This document shows, one piece after another, positions 4,137 through 35,151 of a DNA stretch of 64,000 nucleotides. The position numbers and the translations under genes were made by a program. The stretch is from positions 4,155 through 68,154 of the forward strand of contig CACZAC010000015.1 of assembly GCA_902779125.1 (NCBI GenBank). Direction: 5' to 3'. Under the pieces are notes generated by a model, which was given only the letters and a program-made list of their open reading frames with translations, made no database searches and was not told where the DNA came from. This DNA is from an uncultured Bacteroidales bacterium (GTDB lineage: Bacteria; Bacteroidota; Bacteroidia; Bacteroidales; Muribaculaceae). How positions within the stretch are numbered: the stretch's first letter is position 1; each line of letters starts with the position of its first letter.

Positions 4137-5489
4137 TTAGTAGTATATCTCCACGAGACGTTTATCCTCGTGGTTGTATGTCGTGTATCCGTCGGCGACC
4201 GTCAGTTCGCCGTCAACGTCAAGCGCCTTGCCGTTGGGTGCGCAGCTATAGAAGGAGCCGCCACTGATAATACAGTCGGTGTCACATTTCACACCCTTGG
4301 GCGCCACACTCATCTGCTTGCCGGTCAGCACCACATTCAGCTCACCGCCCGTGAAGCGGAAAGGCTGAGCCACATTGATACCCTTGGCGTCATCTCCAGT
4401 ACACTTCACATTAAGAATGCCGCCTGTCATGGTGATATTGTAGTCTGCCTTTACGCCAGCACATCCGGTAGACAGTTCATTACCAAGAGAATCGGTCTCG
4501 AGGCTGGAGGTACCGCTTGTAATGATGGTGGTGCGTCCGCCAGTGATGTAAACCAGGCTGTCACAGTTGATGCCCTTAGCTCCATCGGCAGCGATTTCCA
4601 TGTTGATGACACCGCCCTTGATGTGGACATAGTCCTTGGCCTTGATGCCGTGGCCACTGGTGCTGTTGAGGTAGAGCTTGCTGCCCGGTCGCACAAAGAT
4701 AAAGTCATCGCTCGCCATGCAGTGCTTGCCGACGCTGTAGATATTGAGGGGGCCCTTGCCGCTGACCAGAATCTGTCCCTCGCTGAAGAGCGCTGCCTTC
4801 TGGTCCTCGCCTTCCACCATATCGTAGTTCTCACCGTCGCGCAGGGTATTGACTGTACCCTCGTTAGACACGACATAGAGTGACTTGCCGCACTGGTTGT
4901 TGACGGCAGCGCCATGCGGGTTGGTGATGTCCACGCCATTAAGCTGCAACTGGAATTTCTTATCACTGTAGAACTTAAGCGAACCGTTGGTAGTGGTGCC
5001 TGACACAATATAGCGCACTCGCTTGGCAGCGCTGGTAATGGTCACATGGGCGCCATCGATAGAGGGTATAATCGATGCGGAGTTGCCCGTCACAGTTGCT
5101 GTCTCGCCGTCAAAGGTAATCATCACAGTTGTTGACCAGGTTGTATTCTCCACATAGTCCTCAAAATCAGGATCATCCTCATCATCGGTGAACGTCTCCT
5201 TCGGCTCGTTGAGTTCAGAGAAGTCCAGTTCTATCTCCTTGGGGACCACTTCGTCGATGACGGGGCCATTAAGGATGATATCGATGATTGCGTTCACATC
5301 GCCCACCGTGATTTCTCCATCCTTATTCACATCAACGTCCAGATTTCCAGTATTGTTCACGATGGCATTGATGACCACATTCACGTCACTGACGGTCACC
5401 TCGCCATCGTTATTCACGTCTCCTTTCAATGCCGAAGCGTGAAATGCTATCACCGCAAACGACAATGCCAACAATAAAAGCTTTTTCAT
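4137..5489 (-). CDS. Secreted protein: N-terminal dockerin-like repeat plus Cthe_2159 (DUF4353) beta-helix carbohydrate-binding domain
   Basis: Signal peptide; KGDVNNDGEVTVSDVN...DVNKDGEITVGDVN EF-hand pair; GSLKFYS, NNQCGK, AALFSEGQI, SDDFI, GHGIKAKD, GINCD beta-helix repeats. Confidence 0.85.
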   Translation of the reverse strand: MKKLLLLALSFAVIAFHASALKGDVNNDGEVTVSDVNVVINAIVNNTGNLDVDVNKDGEITVGDVNAIIDIILNGPVIDEVVPKEIELDFSELNEPKETFTDDEDDPDFEDYVENTTWSTTVMITFDGETATVTGNSASIIPSIDGAHVTITSAAKRVRYIVSGTTTNGSLKFYSDKKFQLQLNGVDITNPHGAAVNNQCGKSLYVVSNEGTVNTLRDGENYDMVEGEDQKAALFSEGQILVSGKGPLNIYSVGKHCMASDDFIFVRPGSKLYLNSTSGHGIKAKDYVHIKGGVINMEIAADGAKGINCDSLVYITGGRTTIITSGTSSLETDSLGNELSTGCAGVKADYNITMTGGILNVKCTGDDAKGINVAQPFRFTGGELNVVLTGKQMSVAPKGVKCDTDCIISGGSFYSCAPNGKALDVDGELTVADGYTTYNHEDKRLVEIYY

Positions 5490-27239: not shown

Positions 27240-27767
27240 TCATTGGTCTGGAAGAGTTTTCTTGTACTTCTGATACACTTTTTTCAACTGTTTGTCAATC
27301 TCATTGATGGGACGGTCGAGTTCTTTTAACTTCACTTCGTAACGAAGGGTGTTCTCGGGGTCCGTCTTTTCATGATATTTCACGATGAACTTAAGCGTGG
27401 GAATGCGAAATTCTAAGACAGTCTTGAACCTCACTTGTTCACAGTCAGCAAAGGGTATCGTTGTGGCCAAGCCGTCATTGTCGTAGAAGACGAAGAAGTC
27501 AGCGCCGACGGCAAATGCGGGTATACCGTGGCGGGCTTTATCGGTCCTTCGGAAATTTTCGACAGTAGACAGTATCGTGCCAAGTGTAATCAGGCCATAG
27601 ACAATGATTATCACGTAGCCATGCCAGTCATCAAACAGGAACGACAGGTCCCAATGGGCAAAGCAGAACACACCGAGAGCGACCAAAGCCACTGACAGTA
27701 TCACGTAGGCGACCGCCTTCGATGTCGCCAACCCCTTCCGGTAATAGTATTGATGTAATATCTCCAT
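27240..27767 (-). CDS. Hypothetical membrane protein (2 TM plus PH-like soluble domain)
   Basis: 175 aa, two hydrophobic helices followed by a beta-rich domain. Confidence 0.7.
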   Translation of the reverse strand: MEILHQYYYRKGLATSKAVAYVILSVALVALGVFCFAHWDLSFLFDDWHGYVIIIVYGLITLGTILSTVENFRRTDKARHGIPAFAVGADFFVFYDNDGLATTIPFADCEQVRFKTVLEFRIPTLKFIVKYHEKTDPENTLRYEVKLKELDRPINEIDKQLKKVYQKYKKTLPDQ

Positions 27768-27867: not shown

Positions 27868-27950
27868 TTGCCTGGTTAGCTTGGCTCTCCAGGGTTGGAT
27901 AAGGCAATGTACGCCCCTGTTGTGGTGGTCGAGTACGTCGGCAGTGCCTT
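27868..27950 (-). pseudogene. Decayed, frameshifted copy of the comM 3' tail (relic C)
   Basis: Reads GTADVLDHH then, after a frameshift, IALSNPGEPS, versus [23 protein letters not shown] in intact comM. Confidence 0.7.
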
Positions 27951-27958
27951 GTTCGCGG

Positions 27959-27991
27959 ATGCTATCAGAAATCTCAGATGAATCAGTTGTT
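27959..27991 (+). repeat. 33-bp direct repeat, copy 1
   Basis: atgctatcagaaatctcagatgaatcagttgtt, identical to 28276-28308. Confidence 0.95.
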
Positions 27992-28227
27992 GAAATTCCT
28001 TAGAGGTCGGCGATGGTGCAGGCGACTTTGAAGTAAACGCGGCAGTAATTTCAAGATTGCCACAGTTGGAGATATATCTACATCTATTTGCAGCTTTATC
28101 AAGATAAAACAACAATAGTTTATCATAATAAACATTCTAAAAAACTGATAACAAATATCTTGTCTCTTTTATGCAAGATAGCTTAAAAATCCCACTGCTT
28201 ATCCATATTCTTGACATATAAAGTCCA

Positions 28228-28257
28228 TTGGTAGAGCATCAGCTTCCCAAGTTGGGG
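28228..28257 (+). pseudogene. tRNA-Gly(CCC) fragment (D-loop plus anticodon arm)
   Basis: ttggtagagca-tcagc-tt-CCC-aa-gttgg-gg; no acceptor stem or T-arm nearby. Confidence 0.65.
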
Positions 28258-28275
28258 ACTGAAGGTTAGACCTGA

Positions 28276-28308
28276 ATGCTATCAGAAATCTCAGATGAAT
28301 CAGTTGTT
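28276..28308 (+). repeat. 33-bp direct repeat, copy 2
   Basis: Identical to 27959-27991. Confidence 0.95.
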
Positions 28309-28370
28309 TGCTAGAAAGTTGTTCCCGTTGATGTTCTGTTGTCACTGTTATTTGACAGGGTGCACAGGCT

Positions 28371-28508
28371 CGGATTCATCGAGGCAACGAGCATAAACGA
28401 CACAGGATACTCGGTCGAATATTTCGCCCTACTGATGCTTATAATCCTGTCCTCCAGCGGCTGTCGCATCACCTCCAACACATTTCTAGAAAATTCAGGC
28501 AATTCATC
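28371..28508 (-). pseudogene. Internal comM fragment starting at the Walker-B Asp (DELP...MNP)
   Basis: 46 codons, 43/46 aa identical to intact comM 34099-34236, with many synonymous changes. Confidence 0.92.
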
Positions 28509-28609
28509 CACGTGGAAAGACTTGCCCCATTGCAACAGCCTCATTGCCAACCATAAAGTCCCCAAAAACAACCAAAACATGTACCATAAAACCATTCACA
28601 ACCACAAAG
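28498..28609 (-). repeat. About 112-bp repeat copy 1: non-comM end sequence fused to comM DELP codons (att-like junction)
   Basis: About 84% identical (18 differences counted by hand) to 29616-29726. Confidence 0.85.
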
Positions 28610-28706
28610 ATAAATGTTTCTAAAACACAAAGACACAAATCATTACATCAAAAGAATCGTTCCTTTTATCTTATTGATGTATCATTGTTAAGTTTGGGCT
28701 TTTTAC

Positions 28707-29426
28707 TTATTTTGTTTTGTTCTTGTTTACCCAATTCACCGACTTATATACATACCGCCCTGTAAGGAACACACATAGAATTATTAATATGGAATACCAT
28801 GAATTTTTCTTTAATTCATTTTCATAACCATCCAACCTATATGAATTTATCATTGAATTCCACTCTGCTTGGCCTTTTTCAATTTCTTGCTTTTTCCATT
28901 GTTCTTTTTCTTGCTCAGTCATGATTGTATAATGTCGAAAATAGGGTTCTGCACTCACCTTGTTGCCATTTTCATCCAATATGATCTCCCCTTTATGACG
29001 TTCAAGATTCTTTTTTTCAATTGCAATCAACTCTTTGAATTTACTTTCTGCATCATCCTCATTAAGAACGTAGTTACCAGTTATCAATTCTGGATCATAA
29101 CAACTTGCCCCAAATGGTAATTCAGGTGAACGCTTTGTATCATTTGAACGATAAACAACATAACCAGCCATATACAGGCCCCATAAAAGAAGTGCAACAA
29201 ACAATAGTTTACTTATGGCAACCATTTCATCAGCAAATGCGCTTTTGTTCTTTTGTACCTCTTTTTCCATTTCAGGTTTGTGCATATCAAGGACATCCTC
29301 TTTGACCTTAATATCGTTCTTTTTTTGCAGCTTCTCTTCAACTATATCAAGATCCTGTTTCGCACCACAATACTTGCAAAACATAGAATCTGCCGCTATC
29401 ACTTTTCCGCACTTTTTACAAAACAT
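28707..29426 (-). CDS. Zinc-ribbon membrane protein
   Basis: MFCKKCGKVIAADSMFCKYCG (double CxxC), two TM helices, AT-rich. Confidence 0.8.
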   Translation of the reverse strand: MFCKKCGKVIAADSMFCKYCGAKQDLDIVEEKLQKKNDIKVKEDVLDMHKPEMEKEVQKNKSAFADEMVAISKLLFVALLLWGLYMAGYVVYRSNDTKRSPELPFGASCYDPELITGNYVLNEDDAESKFKELIAIEKKNLERHKGEIILDENGNKVSAEPYFRHYTIMTEQEKEQWKKQEIEKGQAEWNSMINSYRLDGYENELKKNSWYSILIILCVFLTGRYVYKSVNWVNKNKTK

Positions 29427-29593
29427 AATGAACCTAATGATTATTGCTTTGCAAATATAGGAAAACTATTATATTCAAGTGTCATGATTATTGAAAATTG
29501 CTAAGATTTGGCATTTTTTATATGGATTCAAGTGCCAAATTTATCGAAAAATACATTGATTTGCCACTCAAATAATCTAAAGAAATTACACTT

Positions 29594-29726
29594 TTCCAAG
29601 ATTTGATTAAATATAGGCAGCTCATCCAAGTGGAACGACTTGCCCCATTGCAATAGCCTTAGAGTTAACCACAAAGTCCCCAAAACGACCCAAATATGTA
29701 CCATAAAGCCATTCACAATTACAAAG
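29594..29726 (-). repeat. Repeat copy 2: the same end sequence fused to a short comM DELP fragment (DELPIFNQILE)
   Basis: Junction gcaatggggcaagtcgttccact-tggatgagctgcc; matches 28498-28609. Confidence 0.8.
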
Positions 29727-29864
29727 TTATTTACAATTCTCAAAAATATCAAAAAAAATAACTAAATTTGCAATTAGGAAACACTACAGTTATTTCTAAC
29801 TGTATCTCATTATTAAATATTAAAATAATCTAAATTTGATAATAATAACGTAAGAAATACACAT

Positions 29865-31322
29865 ATGAATAGCCCCAAAGTATTTATATCTTATAGTTGG
29901 AGTAGTCCTGAGCATGAGCAACGGGTCCTTGATATCGCAACAGAGCTTGCTGAAAATGGCGTTGATGTAATTCTTGACAAATGGGACCTAAAAGAAGGTG
30001 ATGATGCTGACGCATTTATGGAACAGATGGTTGCAAATCCTGAGATACAAAAAGTCCTCATCATTTGTGACAAGAAGTATTCTGAAAAATCAGACAAAAG
30101 AACTGGGGGTGCTGGTACTGAAGCACAAATAATTTCGCGAAAAATATATGAACAGACAGATGAGGGAAAATTTGTAGTTGCTGCTTTCGAGATGAATGAA
30201 GAAACAGGTAAACCATACCTGCCGACTTACTATGGGTCTCGAAAATATATAGACTTTACAGATTCAAACAAATATGCGACAAAATTTGAGGAGCTGATCC
30301 GCTGGATTTTCAATAAGCCATTATACGTAAAACCTCAATTGGGCAGGGTACCAGATTACATATTATCTGAAGAAAAAAAGTCGTTAGGAACAACAGCTAC
30401 ATACAGACGTGCTAAATCGTTTATTTTAGAAGGTCGCTCTAACGCTTCTGGTGCAGTACGCGAATACTTATCCCGATTTTCTTCCAATTTATCTGCGTTT
30501 CAACTCCCATCCTATAAGAATGGTGAAAATTTCTATAATCAAGTAATTGATAATATCAATGAATTTGCACCTTATAGGGAGGAGTGGCTTGATATTTTAC
30601 ACTCAGTTTGTAACAATGGTTTATTAGTTGATGTAATGAATGACTATATTAGATTCTTTGAAGATATACACCAATATACTTTCCATCGAACTGCTATTAG
30701 TCATCCCTATCAACAAGAGGAAGATAATATGAAGTTCATCGAATATGAACTGATGCTATGCTTTGTTGCGCTTTTACTCAGGAAAGAGTGCTTCAAAGAA
30801 GTATCAATTATTCTAGAAGGGACATTTTATAACAAATATTCATCCTCGGAAAATGAGGCTACTTATAATTATTGTGTCTTTAATCACTACTTGTATTCAC
30901 TACACAATCAAAATAAAAGAAGATCTAATCCATATTATTCATTGCAAGCGAAAATTTTCTATGATCGAATGGCATCGTGCACATACTTAGATATTACTGA
31001 TATCTGCCAAGCGGACTTCGTTTGTTGGTTGTATTATCTAGGGCATCCTGAAAATAATATCTTATCTGTGCATAGATGGTATCCCCATAACTTGTTGTAT
31101 GCATGCAATATGAGACGACCATTTGAAATATTCGCAAGAGCCGAATCTTTACGTTATTTGGATTCAATGAAAGTCGTTTTTGACTACAACACTAAAGACG
31201 ATTTCATAAAATTGTACAATTCTATAATGGAAAACAGAGATTCTATTATTCCAAGATGGGAATTTGAAACTCCGAATATCAAATTACTTATGAATATAGA
31301 TAGATTGGGAACTAGAAAATAG
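29865..31322 (+). CDS. SEFIR/TIR-domain protein with a large helical C-terminus
   Basis: PKVFISYSW, LAENGVDVILDKWDLKEGDD..AFMEQMV, KVLIICD..Y, GGAGTEAQII, KYIDF; AT-rich. Confidence 0.88.
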   Translation: MNSPKVFISYSWSSPEHEQRVLDIATELAENGVDVILDKWDLKEGDDADAFMEQMVANPEIQKVLIICDKKYSEKSDKRTGGAGTEAQIISRKIYEQTDEGKFVVAAFEMNEETGKPYLPTYYGSRKYIDFTDSNKYATKFEELIRWIFNKPLYVKPQLGRVPDYILSEEKKSLGTTATYRRAKSFILEGRSNASGAVREYLSRFSSNLSAFQLPSYKNGENFYNQVIDNINEFAPYREEWLDILHSVCNNGLLVDVMNDYIRFFEDIHQYTFHRTAISHPYQQEEDNMKFIEYELMLCFVALLLRKECFKEVSIILEGTFYNKYSSSENEATYNYCVFNHYLYSLHNQNKRRSNPYYSLQAKIFYDRMASCTYLDITDICQADFVCWLYYLGHPENNILSVHRWYPHNLLYACNMRRPFEIFARAESLRYLDSMKVVFDYNTKDDFIKLYNSIMENRDSIIPRWEFETPNIKLLMNIDRLGTRK

Positions 31323-31466
31323 TGCAAAGACAATTTATAACATTAAAAATCTTCAGAAAGCTTACGACGTGAGGAATAAACAGAGTCGATACTCTTGTAA
31401 TCTTATTAATAATTACGATGCAGAAATTGGATAAACTTATTTAATTTTGCAAAAAATTATATCGCT

Positions 31467-32102
31467 ATGAAGAGATACTTATTGATTTCACTGATTGTGT
31501 TATTTTCTTTGGGTGATCAAGCTCAAGGATTTGATGGTATAGGGAAGTTACACCTTGATATGACCTTGAATGAAGTTCGTGGCCTATTTCCTCAAAAACT
31601 TGTTAAACAGTATGATGTTTCCACGTTTAAGAAAGTATATAAATTAAACTCATACACCCCTATCAAAGGGCATACTTTCAGAGATATTCATTTATATTTT
31701 TATAATGACACGTTGTACGCAATTTATGTGAATAATTCAAATTACCAAATAGAGCAATCTTTATTTACAAAATATGGGAAGCCTAAAGATAAGATTCATC
31801 GATTCAGATCATATATCGAAGAATTGATCTCTATATATGGATACGATTCAGCAGATTTTGTTGATGATTCAAAAGCTGGCAAATGGGATATAATTGATAC
31901 TTTTTATGAATGGAATCTAGATAATCCACTCCATAAATGCTTATTAGTTGATTGTTTATATTACGATAGACAAGGTAAATCACAATTGGATTATTTACTA
32001 ATTATAAAAAATACTGCATTTGCAGAGTGCGTGTCTTTAGAAGAAAAATTACTTGAAAGAGAGAAACAATCTGAGCCAGTAGAAGGTTTGGAGGGATTAT
32101 GA
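31467..32102 (+). CDS. Secreted hypothetical protein
   Basis: Signal peptide MKRYLLISLIVLFSLG; AT-rich; FDGIGKLHLDMT N-terminal motif. Confidence 0.7.
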   Translation: MKRYLLISLIVLFSLGDQAQGFDGIGKLHLDMTLNEVRGLFPQKLVKQYDVSTFKKVYKLNSYTPIKGHTFRDIHLYFYNDTLYAIYVNNSNYQIEQSLFTKYGKPKDKIHRFRSYIEELISIYGYDSADFVDDSKAGKWDIIDTFYEWNLDNPLHKCLLVDCLYYDRQGKSQLDYLLIIKNTAFAECVSLEEKLLEREKQSEPVEGLEGL

Positions 32103-32248
32103 TGTTTTATTAATATCGGAAATATAATTATTAAAGAAACATGTATAGGTTCTTTTGATGTTTAATTCCAATCACGATCTTCATCTTTAAGAGTACATCC
32201 AAAACACATGTAGCAGCGATTTAAATGCATTTTTTGCATTCTTAATTT

Positions 32249-32359
32249 TAGCGTACTGCCCATATAGCTTGGGCGGTCGATGTTGAGGTAGGCGATGGCC
32301 TCCATGATGTGGTGGTCGAGGACGTCGGCGGTGCCTTCGAAGTCGGAGATGATGCGGGC
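32249..32359 (-). pseudogene. comM 3' tail copy (relic B)
   Basis: In-frame [36 protein letters not shown] versus [36 protein letters not shown]; GC-rich island in AT-rich DNA. Confidence 0.9.
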
Positions 32360-32408
32360 ATAATCGTTCTAATCCCCAAATTTATCAAAATTCAGGGAAT
32401 ATAGAGGT

Positions 32409-32589
32409 CTATAAACTACTGCCGAGGTAGGTGGGGCGGTCGAGGTTGCGGTAGGCGATAGCTTCCATGATGTGGTGGTCGAGGACGTCGGCGCAGGCCT
32501 CGAGGTCGGCGATGGTGCGGGCGACTTTGAGGATGCGGTCGTAGGCGCGGGCGGACATGTTCATGCGTTCCATGGCGTCTTTCAGTTTC
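32409..32589 (-). pseudogene. comM 3' tail copy with its own stop codon (relic A)
   Basis: In-frame [59 protein letters not shown], a near-identical allele of the last ~60 codons of comM. Confidence 0.95.
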
Positions 32590-32667
32590 CTAACCTGGAT
32601 TAGACTGATGGGAGTATACTAAAAGTTGTTATTACTTGAGGTTCCTCTTTCTGTAACGGATGATTTA

Positions 32668-33480
32668 TTAATGTTCATGATTATTAAGAGTTTGATTATC
32701 TAAGTCCATTGATATAAGTGTTTCCACTATAGTTTTGGCTTTTTCCTTGGGAGAGACTATATTACACACATTTAGAATATTCTTATTGTGTATACTGATA
32801 GGGATTCTTTCATCAGCTATTTTATCTATTATGACTGGTAATACACGAGAAGAATCAATTTCCCAAGCAAACTCTAGCTCTTTAACCGTATATGTGAGTA
32901 ATTTGCTACTTAAAAGGCATATAAAATACCCGTTACTCAGCGTTGACTCTATTGACATCCTCGCAAGAAAACTCCAATTAACATTTGCTGAAACATCTAA
33001 ATAATAGTCCATGTCCCATGCATGAAATCCATACTTTAAACATTCTGATTCAAGTTCTTTGGCTAAAGAACGGTCCATATTGTTATAGCTAATAAACACA
33101 CTTGTTCTACGTCTGAAAGGTTTTATAAGGTTCAGCACATCCTTATCTATTTCAGGGCTATTGATTTCAATTTGAGAAATATCCACAATCTCGTACATGC
33201 GTTTTTTGGATTGAATGTAGTTGACTTCGGACTGTACATACTTTGACGCTTGTGCATTAGGGCTATCGCATAGAATAAAGCGACTACGGGCATCAATTTC
33301 CTTTTTTATAAGCTCATTGATTTCTTCTTCGTCTTCCATGCATTTCAAATAAAAAAGTATTGGACGGAAACCATTATTTTCAAGAGCGTTTCTTACTAGC
33401 CGTACCCGATCAAAGTCCTTTGTTGAGTGTGAAATAAATACCCAAAATCCTTCTTCAAAAATATTTTCTTCTTTTTGCAT
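32668..33480 (-). CDS. Tandem TIR-TIR domain protein
   Basis: TIR1 WVFISHSTKD...FILCDSPNAQASKYVQSEV; TIR2 SVFISYNNMD...FICLLS...VKELEFA; both keep a Glu at the catalytic position. Confidence 0.85.
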   Translation of the reverse strand: MQKEENIFEEGFWVFISHSTKDFDRVRLVRNALENNGFRPILFYLKCMEDEEEINELIKKEIDARSRFILCDSPNAQASKYVQSEVNYIQSKKRMYEIVDISQIEINSPEIDKDVLNLIKPFRRRTSVFISYNNMDRSLAKELESECLKYGFHAWDMDYYLDVSANVNWSFLARMSIESTLSNGYFICLLSSKLLTYTVKELEFAWEIDSSRVLPVIIDKIADERIPISIHNKNILNVCNIVSPKEKAKTIVETLISMDLDNQTLNNHEH

Positions 33481-33603
33481 ATATCGAAACTCTTAATCTA
33501 AAAAACACCATTTTCTAATTACAATGATAAATGGAAATTCTAACGAGAATAGGGATGGTTCTGACGATGATATTATGATATAAGTGAATGTTTTGGAATT
33601 ATC

Positions 33604-35151
33604 TCATATAGAGTTGCCGAGGTAGGTGGGGCGGTCGAGGTTGCGGTAGGCGATGGCTTCCATGATGTGGTGGTCGAAGACGTCGGTGGTGCCTTCGAGG
33701 TCGGCGATTGTGCGGGCGACTTTCAGGATGCGGTCGTAGGCGCGGGCGCTCATGTTCATGCGCTCCATGGCGTCGCGAAGTTTCTCCAGGCCGGCGGCGT
33801 TGGGCTCGGCGTATTTGTGCAGGAGGGATGGGGTCATCTGGGCGTTGCAGTGGATGCCGGGTTCGTCCTTGAAGCGGCGCTCTTGGAGCATCCTTGCGGC
33901 GATGACGCGCTGACGGATGGCGGCGCTGGGTTCGCCTGGGGCCTTGCTGGACATCTGGTCGAAATCGACGGGCTGGACTTCGATCTGCAGGTCAATGCGG
34001 TCCAGCAACGGGCCCGAAATCTTGCTCATGTAGTGGGTGCGCTGGTACTCGTTGCAGACGCATTTCTTCTTGGGGTGCCCATAGTACCCGCACGGGCAAG
34101 GATTCATGCTCGCCACAAGCATGAATGAGGCTGGGTATTCGGTTGAGTATTTCGCCCTCGAAATCGAAATTATCCTGTCCTCCAACGGCTGGCGCATCAC
34201 TTCCAAAACGGAGCGATTGAATTCTGGCAGTTCATCAAGAAAGAGGACGCCGTTGTGCGCCAGGCTGATTTCCCCGGGCATGGGGAAACTGCCACCACCG
34301 ACGAGGGCGACGGGCGAGATGGTGTGGTGCGGGCTGCGGAAAGGACGCACGGTCATCAACGTGGTGCCTTGGGGCAGTTTGCCCGCTACGCTGTGGATTT
34401 TGGTGGTTTCGAGCGCCTCGCTCAGCGTGAGCGGCGGCATGATGGACGGCAGTCGCTTCGCCATCATCGACTTACCAGAGCCCGGGCTGCCCACCAGCAG
34501 GATGTTATGCCCTCCGGCACAGGCGACCTCGAACGCGCGTTTCACGTTCTCCTGTCCCTTGACATCGGCGAAATCGTAGGGGAAAACGCCCTGTGCTTTG
34601 GCAAATTCGGCACGGGTATCCACGACAGTGGGCGTGAGTGAGATGTCGCCGTTGAGGAACTGCACCACCTCGACGAGGTTATCCACGCCATAGATGTTGA
34701 GGTTGTTGACTACAGCGGCCTCCATAGCGTTGGCACGCGGAACGATAAAGCCGTCAAGATGCAGTTCACGCGCCAGGATTGCCATGGGCAGAGCGCCCTT
34801 GATGGGCCGCAGACTGCCGTCGAGCGAGAGTTCGCCCATGAGCATATAACGGTCCAACTTGTCAGTGCTGATTTTCTCGTCACCCGCCAGGATGCCCACC
34901 GCCAGCGGCAGGTCATAGGCCGAGCCTTCCTTCTTGATGTCGGCAGGCGACATATTGATCATCACCTTCTTGCCCGGGAAATTGAAGCCCGTCTGCTGCA
35001 TGGCGCAACGCACGCGCTCGGCGCTCTCCTTGACTGCCGTGTCGGGCAGTCCGATAACCATAAACCCTGAGCCCCAGTCCACTGTCACCTCAATCTCGAC
35101 GCGGATGGCGTCGATGCCTTGCACGGCTGCTGCTATCGTTCTCGCTAACAT
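33604..35151 (-). CDS. comM: ComM/YifB Mg-chelatase-like AAA+ ATPase (competence helicase family)
   Basis: [93 protein letters not shown]. Confidence 0.97.
   Translation of the reverse strand: MLARTIAAAVQGIDAIRVEIEVTVDWGSGFMVIGLPDTAVKESAERVRCAMQQTGFNFPGKKVMINMSPADIKKEGSAYDLPLAVGILAGDEKISTDKLDRYMLMGELSLDGSLRPIKGALPMAILARELHLDGFIVPRANAMEAAVVNNLNIYGVDNLVEVVQFLNGDISLTPTVVDTRAEFAKAQGVFPYDFADVKGQENVKRAFEVACAGGHNILLVGSPGSGKSMMAKRLPSIMPPLTLSEALETTKIHSVAGKLPQGTTLMTVRPFRSPHHTISPVALVGGGSFPMPGEISLAHNGVLFLDELPEFNRSVLEVMRQPLEDRIISISRAKYSTEYPASFMLVASMNPCPCGYYGHPKKKCVCNEYQRTHYMSKISGPLLDRIDLQIEVQPVDFDQMSSKAPGEPSAAIRQRVIAARMLQERRFKDEPGIHCNAQMTPSLLHKYAEPNAAGLEKLRDAMERMNMSARAYDRILKVARTIADLEGTTDVFDHHIMEAIAYRNLDRPTYLGNSI

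Follow-up and report, generated by a model that had tools for sequence, protein, structure and literature searches.

A conserved sequence fused to the Walker-B codons of comM closes small gene cassettes in a subclade of rumen Muribaculaceae

The stretch of DNA analyzed here, 64,000 nucleotides of an uncultured Bacteroidales bacterium of the family Muribaculaceae (hereafter the window; positions 4,155 to 68,154 of contig CACZAC010000015.1, assembly GCA_902779125.1), carries an intact copy of the gene comM and, downstream of it, two copies of a short foreign sequence joined to displaced pieces of comM exactly at the codons of the Walker-B motif. We refer to this sequence as END, and to other loci and genomes by L and G numbers. 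More than 100 copies of END are joined to comM at this constant position, the GATGAR of the Walker-B codons, and they close small cassettes with unrelated cargo genes. We consider it probable that these cassettes were inserted site-specifically at the comM Walker-B codons and were later reshuffled by homologous recombination. The two window repeats would then be right-end junctions of small mobile gene cassettes, either of attR type or between one cassette and the next.

Both window copies of END lie on the minus strand, 1.1 kb apart and in direct orientation, and they are the only two in the 3.35-Mb assembly. Copy A (28509-28615) is the conserved right end of a cassette and reads, on the minus strand, ...TATCTTTGtggttgtgaatggttttatggtacatg...gctgttgcaatggggcaagtctttccacgtg|GATGAATTGCCTGAATTT; its last base is at 28509 and the G of GAT at 28508, where a displaced comM fragment, R3, begins (28362-28508, minus strand; 147 nt, amino acids (aa) 305-354). 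R3 opens with the Walker-B codons GATGAATTGCC and matches the resident comM at 88% of amino acids (tblastn) and 72% of nucleotides (blastn). Copy B (29627-29733, minus strand) reads ...TAACTTTGtaattgtgaatggctttatggtacat...gctattgcaatggggcaagtcgttccacttg|GATGAGCTGCCT, with the G of GAT at 29626, and only 12 nt (four codons) of comM are left behind it, the core remnant GATGAGCTGCCT at 29615-29626 (minus strand), past which non-comM DNA begins that is homologous to the region upstream of a 175-aa gene in L052 and L066. The consensus shared by A and B is ..TA(t/a)CTTTGt(g/a)(g/a)ttgtgaatgg(t/c)tttatggtacat..ggggacttt(a/g)tggtt..aggct(g/a)ttgcaatggggcaagtc(t/g)ttccac(g/t)tg, then GATGA(A/G)(T/C)TGCCT, and the GATGAR-YTGCC abutting each END encodes D-E-L-P at the Walker-B codons of comM. 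The window has two occurrences of the 22-mer GCAATGGGGCAAGTCNTTCCAC, and 100 shuffles produced none. Copy A contains a Bacteroidetes-type -7 box (TATCTTTG, 28612-28605) as well as two GGYTTTATGG direct repeats, and copy B has a -7-like box (TAACTTTG, 29729-29722). The intact gene (33604-35151, minus strand; 515 aa, GC ~58%, with Pfam domains ChlI, Mg_chelatase and Mg_chelatase_C) reads GATGAACTGCC from 34236 at the corresponding docking codons. An earlier sequence-only reading of this stretch had described two non-comM ends of about 100 bp joined to comM at D-E-L-P on the minus strand, about 84% identical and bracketing a zinc-ribbon gene (28707-29426, minus strand), with the docking codons of intact comM at 34236. 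All of this is borne out, identity between A and B being 81-85% in repeat-finder blocks and 82% over 105 nt. Its description of the copies as scars also holds: both junctions are old, decayed relics, A keeping 50 comM codons and B keeping 4.

That END might be decayed comM from upstream of D-E-L-P was considered and rejected; because it has no significant similarity to the comM stretch that it replaces (p ~0.07-0.16), END is foreign DNA with a sharp junction. A local tandem duplication that also copied a chance junction would account for two neighboring copies in the same direction, but it is hardly credible. Identity is 92% between copy A and the most distal END of G348, and 92% between copy B and the distal END of G386; because each is closer to the END of another species than to its neighbor (82%), the two are not a local duplication. 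Moreover, the sequences downstream of A and B differ completely after 12 nt, and more than 100 further copies stand beside other cargo.

The recurrence of the junction was assessed at several scales. A ComM search of all 133 species genomes of the genus uncovered many with an intact comM and extra fragments, which start at aa 303-305 in one subclade or at about aa 280 in another; 18 such loci were retrieved for close study. Among fragments starting at aa 303-305/DELP that were found by comM homology alone, every one (22/22, from 10 genomes of the same genus) is preceded by END at the identical base. BLAST with 125 nt of END places it in 32 of the 133 species, with one to five copies each, and in 20 genomes BLAST and comM coordinates together locate it on the comM contig, 1.3-8 kb downstream of the gene, while ENDs that seem to lie on other contigs reflect contig breaks inside an array (e.g. 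G376). The pattern TGCAATGGNNCNANTNNTTCCNCNTGG, almost wholly inside END, was scanned against one genome per species for 185,579 species and returned 25 loci. Three are chance matches in other phyla, and 22 are metagenome-assembled genomes (MAGs) of rumen Bacteroidales, Muribaculaceae or Sodaliphilus, with 29 sites, of which 27 continue as DELPEF.. and two as DE followed by other DNA. In rumen metagenomes the same pattern identified 69 contigs, with 71 of 73 sites real and nearly all then continuing as comM; it had no match in IMG/VR, and a family-wide BLAST with 126 nt of END gave one chance match only, inside an ATP-grasp gene. The same junction in 32 of 133 species, in 22 MAGs and at 71 of 73 metagenome sites, with unrelated cargo, supports the view of the sequence-only reading that the joining is site-specific rather than random; neither a single local duplication nor a scatter over unrelated sites was found, given the 92% and 82% identities and the near-constant junction at comM. 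Its proposal that END is the terminal sequence of a Bacteroidetes family targeting comM stands as regards the family and fails as regards its breadth: END is not spread across Bacteroidota but occurs solely in a single subclade of one Muribaculaceae genus from the rumen, in hosts whose comM genes are ~90% or more identical at the DNA level.

A cassette is built of cargo and, behind it, END|GATGAR, with a conserved END of ~35-105 bp, and the cassettes form tandem arrays of recombinase-less units that all close with the same END site. Many open with a spare 3' half of comM, and comM is thereby whole. An intact comM followed by at least one fragment spanning aa 303/305-515 is present in the window and at least 20 genomes, and comM is intact in most arrays; each 3' copy ends in 3-4 codons and a stop of its own, and the fragments are often truncated, at many different points. 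The open reading frames (ORFs) upstream of END are unrelated between loci, 113 of them falling into 73 clusters, and the cargo families include TIR, bSEFIR, AbiEii, McrBC, AAA_14/DUF4143 ATPases, radical SAM, LRR, TPR and zinc-ribbon proteins. The cassettes mostly carry phage-defence genes.

Three results place the recombination point at the junction itself. The first comes from pairs of contigs, in which identity falls from the first synonymous sites of the D-E-L-P codons, right after cargo and END. L083 and L103 are 100% identical over 400 nt upstream and 79% downstream, with the first mismatch at +3; the corresponding values are 99.5% and 78% for L075 and L100 (first mismatch +7), 99.5% and 81% for L072 and L005 (+6), and 97% and 60% for L062 and L027 (+7). 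A RecA crossover requires tens of matched bases on both sides and thus cannot resolve within the first few bases of homology. The second is a cassette with a 481-aa ATPase gene and no comM half. In five loci (L023, L045, L089, L043 and L032) its left side is flanked by END|GATGAG, and it closes on the right with an END|GATGAR of its own, the product expected from a circle inserting at an existing END|core site. The third is END at a locus unrelated to comM, ~110 nt upstream of tRNA-Lys(UUU) (G373:C8, L155 8554-8660; L058, 3395-3500; L112), where it keeps only GATG(AA), 4-6 nt of comM, with cassette genes and comM scraps on the other side. The sequence-only reading had asked whether matches to END always abut the comM DELP codons; nearly all do, and the tRNA-Lys site is an exception, yet one that retains the GATG(AA) core. 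A search for the empty tRNA-Lys site in the window's own genome was rejected as a comparison, the upstream region not being conserved.

In END from -50 to -28, which is outside the search pattern, diversity is 0.20-0.26 as against 0.40 at synonymous sites of the adjoining fragment. This low diversity and the two GGYTTTATGG direct repeats, judged from sequence, fit a functional site, and the repeats resemble accessory binding sites. A weak dyad, GGCAAGTTC..N12..GAACTGCC, was read by eye in one END variant and is not present in the GGTACCAT variant.

These observations bear on an explanation by homologous recombination only, in which one ancient event made END|DELP, circles or linear fragments with a comM 3' half then entered by RecA-dependent, Campbell-type insertion-duplication, and arrays grew by unequal crossing-over with END hitch-hiking. 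Such a process would sit well with the lack of a recombinase in cis, with 630-bp repeats that are mosaics of shuffled patch alleles, with the restriction of the family to hosts having comM ~90% or more identical in DNA, and with the progressive erosion of the 5' part of END in many copies. It does not readily account for the several independent contig pairs whose identity breaks off no more than 3-7 nt into the homology, for cassettes that have END|GATGAG on both sides and no comM half, for END upstream of tRNA-Lys with just 4-6 nt of comM, or for a proximal END more conserved than the adjacent synonymous sites. As the sole process we regard it as unlikely.

That homologous recombination acts on the comM 3' halves is nonetheless certain. 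In the first ~130 nt past the Walker-B codons (window 33604-34236 and all fetched 3' halves), patch alleles such as EFNRS, EFSRN and FAEYPKS occur, and RIISIS is encoded three ways; their reassortment between intact genes and fragments is a sign of frequent gene conversion. Several comparisons were rejected. Fragments reading 'DEFAEYPKS' do not serve as a test with a divergent host, as this is a local patch allele, also found in an intact comM, and not the mark of a distant host. Comparing comM 5' and 3' halves to locate chimera breakpoints is blurred by the patch mosaicism, L018 and L016 switching near nt 950 and not at the junction. L075 and L100 do not form a clean presence/absence polymorphism, their flanks not being comparable. 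Matches to comM that end near aa 307-344 in some genomes are contig ends, apart from one in G374, whose comM (L151, G374:C5, ~1505-1515) has a 22-nt frameshifting deletion directly after GATGA, which may be an excision footprint or an assembly artefact.

Several findings weigh against site-specific insertion. The comM 3' halves are mosaics of patch alleles common to intact genes and fragments. All five loci of the ATPase cassette show one and the same END variant on the left, and the double-END structure may thus reflect a single event. Neither a circular form nor an empty-site polymorphism has been observed. END stands only beside comM of the subclade-A type, though the GATGA core is conserved in subclade B, a restriction in keeping with spread that is vertical or limited by homology. 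More than 100 cassettes and the DNA beside them yielded no recombinase. Finally, in the one long element that includes a resolvase (L059/L141/L142, described below), all contigs break before the left (resolvase) end, and the comM junction is not reached there.

Neither the Pfam tally of 58 cargo clusters nor the window array includes a recombinase family, and phmmer with 45 regional ORFs as queries, together with a screen of 1,424 ORFs from all loci, revealed no recombinase. Tyrosine recombinases (PF00589) are absent from and near the arrays of 18 genomes, the PF00589 matches lying elsewhere; none of the PF00239 serine recombinases across the 133 genomes of the genus is at comM; and the genes around the window comM are not recombinases, including any IntI-type integrase. 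The single long cassette mentioned above (L059/L141/L142, also L144) is at least 11 kb, ends in END and encodes a DUF3987 primase, DUF5131, DUF6140 and a 225-aa resolvase; the element is 99.8-100% identical in three rumen samples (L059/L141/L144). The DUF3987 primase module also occurs away from comM, in G348 (beside a tyrosine integrase), G380 and G386.

The comM Walker-B motif is an established target of transposition: Tn6022 (with TnsF) and Tsy (with YRec, HTH and TnsF) target a 10-bp block within it, as demonstrated experimentally (Faure et al. 2023, PMC10293859). The window junctions might be the scars of a Tsy- or Tn6022-like transposon whose TnsF selector, related to tyrosine recombinases, was aimed at this motif, and the gene and motif are indeed identical (PMC10293859); in addition, a short conserved end, comparable in size to the 39-bp Tsy end2, adjoins the 3' part of comM. 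We judge this improbable. Those elements encode YRec/HTH/TnsF or TnsABC and TnsF, split comM, and are single insertions in Proteobacteria. No TnsF-like, TnsABC, TniQ, YRec or HTH genes were found in the Muribaculaceae cassettes or near their arrays, comM is rebuilt and intact with a duplicated 3' half, and the small cassettes are stacked in tandem arrays of many units, which are not described for either transposon. The full-length elements with a tyrosine recombinase, TnsF-like or TniQ gene that the sequence-only reading had suggested looking for thus failed to appear among more than 100 cassettes, nor was there a serine recombinase.

END itself was examined for other roles. A structured RNA or attC-like hairpin was rejected: there is no Rfam match, and an RNAalifold consensus of 18 ENDs, at -6.7 kcal/mol, showed negligible covariation and no conserved fold. 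A coding leader was likewise rejected in view of the lack of codon periodicity and the many copies without a start, and a coding role for END is unlikely. The fuller form of this idea, that END and the comM fragment make up a functional gene, with END contributing a promoter (its TAnnTTTG -7 box), a start and a hydrophobic leader of 26 residues in frame with the C-terminal half of ComM, giving a 236-aa ORF whose paralogues are under selection, is very improbable. Intact ORFs of 236-246 aa do exist in several genomes, 56 of 94 unique ENDs hold an in-frame ATG ORF of at least 20 codons, and the -7 box is conserved. On the other side, third-position periodicity is missing (across codon positions 1, 2 and 3, END has entropies of 0.45, 0.29 and 0.42), 25 of the 94 ENDs have no in-frame start, and most fragments, both window copies included, are truncated at many different points. 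The TAnnTTTG box could possibly act as a putative outward promoter.

Under site-specific insertion with later homologous reshuffling, events may have taken the following order. A site-specific recombinase would insert a cassette, perhaps as a circular intermediate, into comM where the Walker-B codons begin (GATGAR, Asp-Glu). On entering the intact gene the cassette would bring along a substitute for the comM 3' half (aa 305-515, including a tail and stop of its own), such that comM would read through unbroken while the previous 3' half is displaced downstream behind END. Repeated insertion would build a tandem array of comM, cargo, END|3' half, cargo, END|3' half and so on, up to the host 175-aa gene, and cassettes without a comM half would insert at an existing END|GATGAR. 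Because the cassettes do not encode it, the recombinase, of whichever class, would act in trans or have been lost. Homologous recombination and gene conversion between 3' halves, along with deletions, would later reshuffle and erode the array. Through such a mechanism the system could amount to an integron-like platform for gene capture that lacks the integron integrase, with the comM Walker-B codons as the primary dock, END and GATGAR as the cassette site, and a trans-acting recombinase, supplied by the host or a helper, to capture, stack and exchange mostly anti-phage cassettes, each insertion being made harmless by the replacement half-gene. This broader picture we offer only tentatively. 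If a recombinase does act in trans, the cassettes would represent a compact, sequence-defined gene-capture system at a harmless site in a dominant rumen lineage, and would offer a handle for tracking the flow of defence genes between species. END (~35-105 bp) and GATGAR, with a 60-bp comM target, make a candidate att pair that can be tested.

Three traits of gene-restoring integrative elements, the tyrosine- or serine-integrase islands that duplicate the 3' part of their target, are present here, namely a constant junction, an element-borne 3' part of the gene and recombination at the att core, and the integrase gene is absent from the cassettes. Integration at the comM Walker-B motif (Tn6022 and Tsy, in Proteobacteria) and tandem islands behind conserved genes are already known; in the literature searched we found no published report of recombinase-less, comM-rebuilding, array-forming defence cassettes in gut or rumen Bacteroidales. 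Like integrons and CALINs (which have no integrase), the cassettes are small, mostly promoter-poor and recombinase-less, share one orientation, each close with a conserved sequence resembling a recombination site, and carry adaptive or defensive cargo, with new cassettes probably entering at one end. Unlike integrons, they have no IntI and no attC-like hairpin, their dock is inside a coding motif, and many bring a replacement half-gene. In accretion arrays of integrative and conjugative elements and their mobilizable relatives (ICE/CIME), such as ICESt3 at fda of Streptococcus thermophilus, elements accumulate site-specifically at the 3' end of a host gene, and decayed members keep their att sites, have lost their recombination genes and could be mobilized in trans, with an integrase-bearing ICE partner known. 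The comM arrays are alike in accretion and in decayed elements, whereas an integrase-bearing partner is known only for ICE/CIME. The closest architecture is that of the Dehalococcoides ssrA islands (PMC3146451), in which low-GC islands are arrayed downstream of one conserved gene, each bounded by a direct repeat of the 3' part of that gene. Immediately upstream of every repeat lies a short conserved motif on the element side, which does not align with the target, and some islands have no integration module. The two differ in that the ssrA repeat comprises 20 bp of an RNA gene, with a serine integrase (DsiB) module present in cis in 16 islands, whereas the comM repeat is a 630-bp protein-coding half-gene from the Walker-B codons on, and 0 of more than 100 cassettes has a recombinase.

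When IMG/VR was scanned with the comM 3' half, the sole matches were unrelated prophages with serine recombinases, sited elsewhere in comM. Unlike the cassettes, these prophages disrupt the gene, at about aa 215 and aa 367, and have a large serine recombinase next to the junction. In viral contigs of other lineages (L117, L118 and L119), large serine recombinases lie directly beside truncated comM, with junctions near aa 215 (Walker A) and aa 367 and with one recombinase at the 5' end of the gene, and because of these contigs comM can be considered a general prophage target. Within the genus, comM is a multi-site hotspot. Besides the END junction it has at least four further junction classes, each with a conserved element-side end of its own and all without a recombinase. 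In one of them (L015-L021, subclade B) the fragments start near aa 280 (aa ~281) behind a different conserved end of ~28 nt (tcccaccacataatcgtatacttgtgcc), and the others start at aa 455, at aa 468 and at aa 476-480.

The window array as a whole spans 27900-33603 (5.7 kb) and has a GC content of 31-42%, between comM (GC 58%) and the host 175-aa gene that forms its distal border (27240-27767). From comM outward its order is TIR-TIR gene, relic R1, relic R2, an ORF of unknown function, bSEFIR, END B, the zinc-ribbon gene, END A with R3, and R4. The cargo nearest intact comM encodes a 270-aa TIR-TIR protein (32668-33480, minus strand; Pfam TIR_2, E 5e-23; PADLOC ThsB-like, E 5e-10). Relic R1 (32412-32594, minus strand) covers comM aa 455-515 at 85% amino acid and 92.5% nucleotide identity and marks the junction of a different cassette class, and R2 (32249-32359, minus strand; aa 479-515) belongs to a further junction class. 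The bSEFIR/TIR anti-phage defence gene, of 485 aa, is on the plus strand (29865-31322; PADLOC bSEFIR, E 3e-102 over the full length; Pfam SEFIR and TIR_2), and homologues of its product are cargo of comM arrays in L006 and L080. The zinc-ribbon gene between the two ENDs encodes a 239-aa membrane protein (Pfam Zn_Ribbon_1, E 3e-6) with no PADLOC match. Relic R4 (27922-28047, minus strand; aa 472-495) is interrupted by a 33-nt motif, and R3 and R4 together are the decayed, most distal comM 3' half, adjoining the 175-aa host gene.

Other cassettes of these arrays differ in scale and composition. In L015 (G375:C33, 4874-19296), a complete ~15-kb polysaccharide-utilisation locus of SusC/SusD type occupies the space from comM to a class-I comM fragment as a single cassette, with no recombinase. 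Cargo genes for the 481-aa or AAA_14/DUF4143 AAA-ATPases are preceded by repeated palindromes, AGTCCCTAACG..N..GAGTTAAGGACT (L023 150-340, L054, L013 10230-10400), and the joining of this palindrome and ATPase module to comM fragments at several points suggests that it moves on its own. Fragment R3 stops after its CPC codons at +147 (window 28362), a truncation shared by at least eight other loci, where it is followed by ..caaacaactgtgacaaca; past this junction the window sequence runs ..accctgtcaaataacagtgacaaca. An exact 33-nt repeat (aacaactgattcatctgagatttctgat..) occurs at window positions 27959-27991 and 28276-28308, and also beside comM aa ~486 in L013, L050, L011 and L076. The +147 junction and the 33-nt repeat look like another family of small elements or footprints that targets comM fragments.

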